Assembly: GCA_046497275.1 (NCBI GenBank)
Contig: JAWOFX010000149.1
Coordinates: 1 to 24,088 of the forward strand
Length of the DNA stretch: 24,088 nucleotides
Source: Promethearchaeia archaeon
GTDB taxonomy: Archaea; Asgardarchaeota; Lokiarchaeia; Sigyniarchaeales; SOKP01
Direction of reading: 5' to 3'
Part shown: positions 2,695 through 4,527 of the stretch, piece after piece
Numbering within the stretch: the stretch's first letter is position 1
How the letters are laid out: every line of letters begins with the position of its first letter
Notes under the pieces: model-generated
Told to the model about the DNA's origin: nothing
The model's input: only the letters and a program-made list of their open reading frames with translations
Databases searched by the model: none
Translations under genes and position numbers: made by a program

Positions 2695-4026
2695 TTAGTC
2701 AGTAATACCATTTCCTGTGATACTGAATACTGCCTCTCCTTCTGGGAGATGAGGTGCGTCAACGATTTTTGCTACTCTTTGTTCTCCTTTCCCCTTTCTT
2801 AGATAAATACGGATCGTAGAACCATGAGCGATTATATTCCCACCAGCGGCTTGTAATGGATTGCCATAAAATACATCAGGTTTAGCTTGAACTTGATTTG
2901 TTACTACAATAGCTAAATCTGGGTAAATATCACATAATCGAAGTAAATCGTGCAGATGCTGATTAAGGATTTGTTGACGATTTGCGAGGGTCCCACGACC
3001 AATATATTCACTTCTAAAATGACCTATTAATGAATCAATTACAATGAGTTTTACATTTTTTTCTTTTATGATATTTACAGCTTCTTTAGCAAGTAAGATT
3101 TGGTGATCTGAATTATATGCTCGTCCAAACACTATATTTTTTAAAACCGTATTATAATCTAAATCAAGACCTTCTGCCATCTGAATTATTCTCTCAGGTC
3201 GAAAAGTACCTTCAGTGTCGATATAAAGAGCAGCACCTTCAATCCCTCCTTTTTCTTTAGGAAGTTGCACATTAACGCATAATTGATGCATTATTTGAGT
3301 TTTACCCGTACGAAATTCTCCAAAAAACTCAATCATTGACCCAGTTTCAACCCCTCCCGCAAGTAGATTATCTAATTCTTGACTTCCCGTAGTTATTCGT
3401 GCGATATTTTTCCGAGTTTCCCATAAAGTTTGGGCAGATTTAAACCCAACATTTAATTTCTTCATAGCTTGCTTTATGAGTTTCTCGGTCGTTTTATCTC
3501 CGAGTCCACTATCTTCTTTAATTATAGAAGGAGGAGTATATGCAATTGCTTCAAGACTATTAAAACCTGCTTTTATAAGTTTTCGTAGAGTCGCATCTCC
3601 TACTCCTGATAAATCCTTAACTTGTTCTATACATTCTTCCATGGTTCTATCATCCCCCCCATAAATTTCTATGTCTCCTTCATCATCTTCATCTTCGTCA
3701 TCGTCTTCCTCGTCATCGTCTTCCTCGTCTTCGAATTCCTCTTCCTCTCTCATTTCTTCAAAATCGTCATCTATCTCTTCATCATAATCTTCAAATTCTT
3801 CAAAATCTTCTCCATCCTCAATTTCATCATCTTCTAATTCTTCATTTGCTATTTCATTCTCTTTAGAATCTTCTTCTTCGTCAACTTGTGGAACTTGAGC
3901 ATATTTTAGATGGTCCTTATAGATTTGTCCTTTTACGTGATTTCGATCGCATTCTGGGCAATAATAAGGATCACCCATTTTAAAATCATCATTATTCATT
4001 TCTACTGCCTTAGCCAAATAAATCAC
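2695..4026 (-). CDS. radA: DNA repair and recombination protein RadA (Rad51/RadA family) with atypical N-terminal Cys2His2-like module and long acidic tract
   Basis: HhH domain ([27 protein letters not shown]), FxxA polymerisation motif (GFKSA), Walker [30 protein letters not shown], Walker [29 protein letters not shown]. The start codon is uncertain: GTG at 4026, or a downstream TTG/ATG. Confidence 0.97.
3695..3724. repeat. Exact 15-bp tandem duplication (tcgtcatcgtcttcc x2, partial third copy) inside the radA acidic tract
   Basis: Read directly at 3695-3709 and 3710-3724; encodes EEDDD twice on the minus strand. Confidence 0.85.
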
Positions 4027-4053
4027 TTAAAATTTAGTGTATTTTTTATACTT

Positions 4054-4164: not shown

Positions 4165-4527
4165 TTAAGAAATGCTTTTTAGCTGTTCTGCTACTTTCCG
4201 CATTTCAATGAAACATATATCCATACGCGCATCAATATTCAAACACACGGCTATTATTAAATCTGGTCCTGCATCCATCACCGCAAAATTGCCCTCGTCG
4301 CCTTGTAAAATACACACATCCAAAAGTCCTGATCTAAGCTCATTAAGAACCCTCTCAGCCACTGATAATATGGCAGCAGTCATCGCTGCAAGTTTAATTT
4401 CAGATATTCCTTCTTCCAATATGGAGTTTACAATTAATCCTTCTTGTGAAACTATTGCCGCAGATCGTACTCCATCAATATTATCTAAAAGACCTTGTAA
4501 TAGGTATTGAAATTGTTCTTCAGTCAT
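4165..4527 (-). CDS. Roadblock/LC7 (MglB/LAMTOR-like) domain protein
   Basis: 120 aa with IDGVRSAAIVSQEGLIVNS, LAAMTAAILSVAERVLNEL, ILQGDEGNFAVMDAGPDLIIAV and a C-terminal helix: the typical Roadblock alpha-beta-beta-alpha-beta-beta-beta-alpha pattern. Confidence 0.92.
   Translation of the reverse strand: MTEEQFQYLLQGLLDNIDGVRSAAIVSQEGLIVNSILEEGISEIKLAAMTAAILSVAERVLNELRSGLLDVCILQGDEGNFAVMDAGPDLIIAVCLNIDARMDICFIEMRKVAEQLKSIS

Follow-up and report, generated by a model that had tools for sequence, protein, structure and literature searches.

A RadA paralog of a Lokiarchaeial family with an N-terminal CCHH finger module and an acidic linker

In the 24,088-nucleotide stretch of DNA from a Promethearchaeia archaeon analysed here (contig JAWOFX010000149.1, referred to as the window), a gene on the minus strand encodes a RadA paralog in which a small zinc-finger-like module and a long acidic linker precede the recombinase proper. 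Comparison of orthologous loci indicates that this feature is real and lineage-wide. New here are the accessory finger of this RadA paralog, of a kind not described before, and a family of non-classical CCHH modules with a predicted beta-beta-alpha fold, and no description of such a RadA architecture was found in the literature searched. Taken as a whole, the finger is probably a zinc-dependent targeting tag, gained once, on the acidic tether of one of two RadA paralogs, a reading that we favour with moderate confidence.

A RadA with an extra N-terminus

The minus-strand ORF 2695..4026 (443 aa counted from GTG at 4026) encodes a RadA and was matched by Pfam Rad51 (E 1.8e-94) and HHH_5; its features are listed in Table 1. 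The protein passed both NCBIfam RadA equivalogs, NF003301 (454.8 bits, cut-off 259) and TIGR02236 (433.4 bits, cut-off 361), and aligned to the solved RadA chains 1pzn (E 1e-104) and 2bke. With canonical archaeal RadA (NF003301/TIGR02236; 1pzn, 2bke, 1t4g) it shares the HhH domain, the FxxA motif and the ATPase core, in which Walker A and the other core motifs line up with those of the canonical RadA paralog. The FxxA motif serves polymerisation in RadA/Rad51 filaments. Judged by these motifs and models, the protein is a bona fide, full RadA and apparently catalytically intact. The equivalog matches span residues 134-443 only, and every solved RadA/Rad51/Dmc1 chain aligns only from residue 111-140 on. 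Therefore, the first ~130 residues are extra in comparison with canonical archaeal RadA, and they comprise a short head, then the finger motif and then the acidic tract, a disordered linker.

An earlier note on this DNA, made from the sequence alone, had described a C-x2-C-x3-H-x8-H motif at 3898-3966 (-), ahead of the acidic tract, as a Cys2His2-like module added to the core recombinase. The motif is indeed encoded at exactly this position (residues 21-43, GTG numbering), and it lies outside RadA/Rad51 proper, as the note had held. That the finger is an addition was also confirmed; the notion of a single core recombinase has to be amended. A point in which the gene differs from canonical archaeal RadA is that a close paralog, a RadA of 326 aa, accompanies it in the genome.

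Table 1. Features of the finger-bearing RadA gene in the window (residues in GTG numbering)
Feature	Position in the window	Strand	Details
Finger-bearing RadA paralog gene	2695..4017	-	440 aa from TTG at 4017; stop 2695-2697
TATA-box-like element	4037..4050	-	A/T-rich box then ACAC, ~33 to 20 nt before the start; in most of 30 loci
GTGAT element	4022..4026	-	5-9 nt before the start codon; kept in most orthologues
Probable start codon TTG	4015..4017	-	Start codon at the aligned site in 30/30 orthologues
Zinc-finger-like module	3898..3984	-	F15-A43; putative ligands C23, C26, H30, H39
First Cys (C23)	3958-3960	-	End of strand 1 in the predicted fold
Second Cys (C26)	3949-3951	-	Turn in the predicted fold
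First His (H30)	3937-3939	-	End of strand 2 in the predicted fold
Second His (H39)	3910-3912	-	Middle of the helix in the predicted fold
Acidic low-complexity linker, finger to HhH	3667..3882	-	73% Asp/Glu
HhH N-terminal domain	3466..3624	-	Pfam HHH_5, residues 135-187, E 6.7e-08
Polymerisation motif G-F-K-S-A (FxxA type)	3433..3447	-	G194 F195 K196 S197 A198 invariant in alignment A1
RecA-fold ATPase core	2698..3414	-	Pfam Rad51, residues 205-443

The four ligands, on whose conservation the earlier note had staked the module, are invariant. C, C, H and H recur at identical spacing in 30/30 orthologous loci fetched, in which Tyr, Arg and Gly at three more positions are invariant as well, and no exception to Y, C, C, H, G or H was seen across 38 aligned copies of the module (alignment A3). 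Synonymous codons replace one another at the invariant sites (TGT/TGC for Cys, CAT/CAC for His, four different codons each for Arg and Gly), indicating that selection acts on the protein. The adjacent acidic tract, unlike the ligands, varies freely in sequence and length. Rows of a further alignment (A5) were picked by the C/C/H/H pattern, so that the invariance there arises partly by construction; the independent evidence is alignment A3 and the count of 138/150 exact spacings given below. Chance can be excluded, since the pattern C-x2-C-x3-H-x8-H occurs just twice in the 3.13 million residues of the six-frame ORFs of the window's own 3.85 Mb genome, once in the finger-bearing RadA and once in a 97 aa protein on contig C150, both of them true copies of the module. 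These comparisons indicate that the finger module is part of the translated protein and that purifying selection on it is strong. When the first 48 residues were used as query against 400 genomes of the phylum, this head was present in 117/134 genomes of the window's own family, nearly always as the front part of an open frame of 405-460 aa, and a profile scan of the genome collection with alignment A1 matched Promethearchaeota MAGs only.

The translation start is most likely TTG at 4017 rather than GTG at 4026, as judged from the orthologues. At the aligned site the 30 orthologues carry TTG (18), ATG (11) or GTG (1), 19-21 codons ahead of the first Cys, and just upstream of it a stop closes the frame in 30/30. 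The ESM Atlas record of the protein likewise begins at TTG 4017; counted from there, the ligands are C20, C23, H27 and H36 of a 440 aa RadA. GTG at 4026 is an unlikely start, since in several orthologues a stop follows the aligned GTGAT or the element does not share the reading frame; the GTGAT element may instead be Shine-Dalgarno-like or promoter-proximal. Starts at M10 and M17 (GTG numbering) were rejected, Met not being conserved there in the orthologues. If translation began further downstream, for example at M132, as the earlier note had allowed, the finger motif would lie outside the protein in an upstream frame that is open by chance or mis-called. The weak first codons annotated here, GTG and TTG, would suit such a start, but it is at odds with the start codons and stops just described, with residues that stay invariant while their codons change synonymously, and with the presence of the same finger in about 140 other proteins. 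Comparative evidence thus refutes this reading, to which we assign almost no probability, and the M132 start was rejected.

The TATA-box-like element upstream of the start (Table 1) is a putative promoter by its sequence and position. At 4165-4527 (-), 138 bp upstream of RadA and on the same strand, is a gene for a 120 aa protein with a Roadblock/LC7 domain (Pfam E 6.6e-13); the location of the conserved promoter-like box between the two genes suggests that RadA has its own promoter. The output of a bacterial-type promoter scan was at chance level, which is irrelevant here, the model being bacterial and the host an archaeon.

Predicted fold of the finger and its wider family

Two AlphaFold runs, with 38 and 131 sequences, gave the same topology of strand, tight turn, strand and helix. 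The predicted elements are a strand at 18-20, a strand at 25-27 and a helix at 31-40, with a core pLDDT of 82-84 in the 131-sequence run, and the confidence of the model is moderate. In this model the two Cys and two His, placed as listed in Table 1, are inferred to coordinate a single zinc ion within a beta-beta-alpha fold. Such a fold, as predicted, would be that of classical C2H2 fingers (Krueppel/TFIIIA-type, PF00096), with which the RadA finger has in common the "PY-x-C-x2-C" knuckle, the aromatic residues on either side of the first Cys and the classical x12 spacing from the second Cys to the helix His. Nevertheless, the RadA finger departs from the classical pattern C-x2-4-C-x12-H-x3-5-H, in that no His follows 3-5 residues after the helix His. 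The position of the missing His is A, I or V in RadA orthologues, and A in 44% and K in 23% across the finger family. The fourth ligand of the RadA finger corresponds to the first helix His of the classical finger, and the third, an invariant His spaced x3 from the second Cys, closes the predicted strand 2 and takes the place of the core Phe. In addition, the RadA finger occurs as a single copy and not in arrays. With the last His absent and the core Phe replaced by an invariant His, the finger is not a classical C2H2 finger; on the predicted model, it is a C2H2-related fold with re-wired ligands outside the classical family. The description as Cys2His2-like therefore applies to the fold as predicted and to no more than that, since the finger fell short of the classical spacing and of the Pfam thresholds.

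No Pfam, PHROGs or NCBIfam model covers the finger; the C2H2 matches in Pfam were sub-threshold only, below the gathering scores of zf-C2H2_jaz (12.5 bits, cut-off 22.6) and ZNF451 C2H2 (14.8 bits, cut-off 30), with E values of 0.17 and 0.028. Foldseek searches of the PDB with both AlphaFold models returned nothing at E <= 0.001, the top rows being all C2H2 fingers and none significant, and VIA-align found no match at Z >= 2 against 48,161 chains. This null result is expected of a domain of only ~30 residues and is not evidence of a new fold. In a PDB profile search, the match was limited to the "PY-x-C-x-x-C" knuckle of Krueppel-type eukaryotic C2H2 arrays, and homology to these arrays was rejected because the Cys knuckle alone matched. 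Leads from the ESM Atlas were limited to weak ones of C2H2 type (score 0.93, few features in common). Most copies of the finger are basic, with a conserved R and a K/R near the junction of strand 2 and the helix; in the window's genus the finger is about neutral and not strongly basic.

A similar logic, a small N-terminal zinc module before a RecA-fold recombination ATPase, is found in bacterial RadA/Sms (TIGR00416). Bacterial RadA/Sms, a helicase of the DnaB type, has a C4 finger, a KNRFG motif and a Lon-like C-terminal domain, and its finger mediates interaction with RecA. In contrast, the finger of the window is CCHH and not C4, and the finger-bearing RadA showed no match to TIGR00416 at E <= 1e-5 and no Lon-like domain. 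The two are analogous, not homologous.

The earlier note had pointed to other host proteins as a place to look for the motif, and such hosts are numerous. A profile of 23 finger copies gave 172 matches at E <= 1e-3 against 1.84 billion cluster representatives, and among the matches listed 138/150 have the exact spacing. A few more of those listed carry an insertion of 1 or 2 residues ahead of the helix. Eukaryotic C2H2 arrays, matched in multiple stretches through the knuckle only, account for about 7, and these were not counted as homologues. Most true matches are 60-260 aa long; the finger is N-terminal in 91/130 and C-terminal in 30/130, and many have no acidic tract. Pfam analysis of 40 larger finger proteins identified HIRAN in 6/40, ParB_N in 2/40, LRR in 2/40 and MUG113/T5orf172 in 1/40, and two of the HIRAN fusions come from genomes of sister families in the same order as the window. 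Many finger proteins are unnamed or "hypothetical" among those with a source record. On this distribution, the finger is a mobile domain family that has no curated model and is found by itself, N- or C-terminally in small proteins, or fused to other domains. The family appears to lean towards DNA-end and replication proteins, not exclusively so, given that its partner domains include LRR proteins.

Some individual members of the family deserve description. In the 97 aa stand-alone protein of contig C150 (L035:1443-1733 (+)), the finger is N-terminal and is followed by a conserved C-terminal domain; its gene adjoins thioredoxin-like and transposase-like genes. Genes of 86-120 aa resembling it occur in many genomes of the window's family, and a scan of the genome collection with the 97 aa protein itself gave no match. 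A relative of 213 aa (L040) has an acidic/low-complexity linker between the finger and its second part. On IMGVR_UViG_3300032046_000018, a viral contig of 71 kb and higher G+C, the gene for a finger protein of 204 aa (L081:6001-6615 (+)) is the immediate upstream neighbour of one for a family B DNA polymerase. A divergent finger-bearing RadA of 465 aa, with the finger at its very first residues, is found on IMGVR_UViG_3300029288_000001 (224.8 kb; L080:3694-7398 (+)), a contig that is classed as viral and may be of chromosomal origin; the gene adjoins a DNA methyltransferase-like gene that is apparently split by a large intein/homing-endonuclease-like insert.

Duplication of RadA in the window's family

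The window's own genome contains four genes of the Rad51 family. Besides the gene of the window (contig C56), with its order of finger, acidic linker, HhH and ATPase core, these are a canonical RadA of 326 aa on contig C46, 67% identical to the finger-bearing RadA over the core, a 379 aa paralog on contig C13 (L003:1216-2355 (-)) in which the HhH domain is C-terminal, and a RadB-like gene of 271 aa on contig C69. Of the family's 41 high-quality genomes, 40 contain the short RadA, 35 the finger type and 2, both of genus g2, a fingerless orthologue of it, and 4 show no finger-type gene. The finger is thus dispensable in some lineages, because the g2 orthologue exists without it and 4/41 genomes do without the finger paralog. 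In sister families of the order there is a single main RadA, whose long, low-complexity N-terminal extension is Lys-rich, then acidic, and carries no finger; therefore, only the finger is new, and the acidic N-terminal extension is older.

In a quick IQ-TREE of 49 RadA cores, rooted on RadAs of other classes, all RadAs of the window's family formed one clade (SH-aLRT 97), within which the short RadAs (support 100) and the finger-bearing RadAs (98) formed separate clades, and the fingerless g2 orthologue was the sister of the finger clade (support 89). The tree places the duplication at the root of this Lokiarchaeial family and indicates that the finger was gained once, on one RadA paralog. The simplest history consistent with these sequences is that an ancestral RadA with an acidic extension was duplicated, after which the extension disappeared from one copy and the finger was added to the other once g2 had split off; alternatively, the finger may have been gained earlier and lost in g2. 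That the finger paralog is a degenerate side copy was rejected. It passes the RadA equivalog cut-offs, as does the short paralog, and it evolves more slowly: its core is more conserved than that of the short paralog in 15/15 genome pairs (mean identity 81.7 vs 73.8%), pairs that are not independent.

Two RadA clades have been described for some of the Asgard archaea, the support being weaker in the case of Lokiarchaea (PMC12722695, 2025), in a paper that contains 0 occurrences of zinc finger or N-terminal extension. The duplication reported here resembles these clades, and Rad51/Dmc1, in that a RadA-type gene was likewise duplicated and two conserved paralogs were retained in one lineage. It is independent of Rad51/Dmc1, being internal to one Lokiarchaeial family in the tree. 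A duplication retained across a family, in which one copy carries a putative zinc tag on an acidic tether, is a natural experiment in the specialisation of recombinase paralogs, and the two RadA paralogs and the fingerless g2 orthologue are directly comparable in strand exchange.

Further variation was seen around the RadA domains. The C13 paralog is permuted, with the ATPase core (Pfam Rad51 49-285) followed by an acidic linker and a C-terminal HhH (HHH_5 324-374), and its orthologues across the family are open frames of ~410 aa with ~41% identity to canonical RadA. In genus g2 (genomes G149 and G147), the short RadA (L075:1307-2557 (+), L076) has an extra N-terminal HhH, giving two HHH_5 stretches, and the orthologues of the finger-bearing RadA (L077, L078) keep the acidic tract without the finger. 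From these sequences, domain gain and loss in the window's family appear to be concentrated at the N-terminus of RadA. Beside the RadB-like paralog on contig C69, a 207 aa protein (L004:544-1167 (-)) has an N-terminal C-x2-C-x9-H-x-C pattern, unlike the RadA finger type.

Possible roles of the finger and its acidic tether

In the mechanism that we propose, the finger would bind one zinc ion and, carried on a flexible acidic tether (36-95 residues and 38-75% Asp/Glu in the orthologues), would form a small zinc-dependent address tag. It would contact DNA or a DNA-bound partner and so set where and when the finger paralog loads, giving this paralog an address or control distinct from that of the tag-less short RadA. 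A targeting tag is favoured because the finger recurs on several DNA-metabolism effectors, has a basic junction between strand 2 and the helix, and occupies a terminal position. From the partner domains HIRAN, ParB_N and T5orf172, a DNA- or protein-targeting role is plausible. As for what is bound, nucleic acid is the leading candidate, though we would not give it an even chance; a protein partner seems somewhat less likely, and the remaining probability falls to purely intramolecular regulation or something else.

One rival reading is that the finger is a protein-protein module, docking RadA, HIRAN and ParB-like proteins on one hub without any contact to DNA. Candidate hubs would be a ubiquitin-like modifier, PCNA, RPA or a chromatin protein, by comparison with UBZ, NZF and PIP-type tags. 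Single beta-beta-alpha fingers of repair proteins often bind protein, as UBZ domains do, and the RadA finger is likewise single and not part of an array; the same tiny finger on several unrelated effectors, LRR proteins included, fits the pattern of a recruitment tag, and a ubiquitin-bound NDP52 finger was among the non-significant Foldseek rows. However, the finger does not resemble UBZ families in sequence, structure searches gave it no significant match, and its conserved basic residues suit nucleic-acid binding equally well, so that we hold docking without DNA contact to be unlikely. A second rival is that finger and acidic linker together act as an intramolecular regulator, keeping the paralog auto-inhibited until a signal arrives: the acidic tract would mimic DNA on the HhH and L1/L2 surfaces, and the finger would anchor or release it. 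An acidic tract of the composition given above always lies between finger and HhH, contains a semi-conserved amphipathic motif and is older than the finger in the order, and the combination of finger and acidic/low-complexity linker recurs in the unrelated 213 aa protein. In contrast, the finger is present in many proteins that have no acidic tract, and the fingerless g2 orthologue retains the tract, indicating that the tract works without the finger. Auto-inhibition is accordingly the more improbable of these two rivals, with a low but appreciable probability.

Beyond the targeting tag on RadA itself, a bolder and rather doubtful extension is that the finger serves the DNA-damage or replication-stress response of Lokiarchaeia as a recruitment code specific to the lineage. 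If so, a shared tag would bring the RadA paralog, HIRAN, ParB-like and GIY-YIG-like proteins, and viruses, to one DNA structure or hub, in analogy to the UBZ, PIP and BRCT tags that organise eukaryotic repair, and the RadA duplication would be an independent archaeal analogue of recombinase subfunctionalisation. The finger, which has no Pfam or NCBIfam model, connects RadA with HIRAN and other DNA-end-handling domains. Its ligand, whether DNA, a modifier or a hub protein, would once defined annotate more than 100 metagenome proteins and could reveal how Lokiarchaeial hosts and their viruses direct repair factors.

The amphipathic motif of the acidic tract is found in many orthologues (window 3700-3830 (-); loci L013-L034), where acidic residues surround a Leu/Ile-x-x-Ala-Phe core, and it is degenerate in the window's genus. 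Judged by its sequence, it could be a putative short docking motif.
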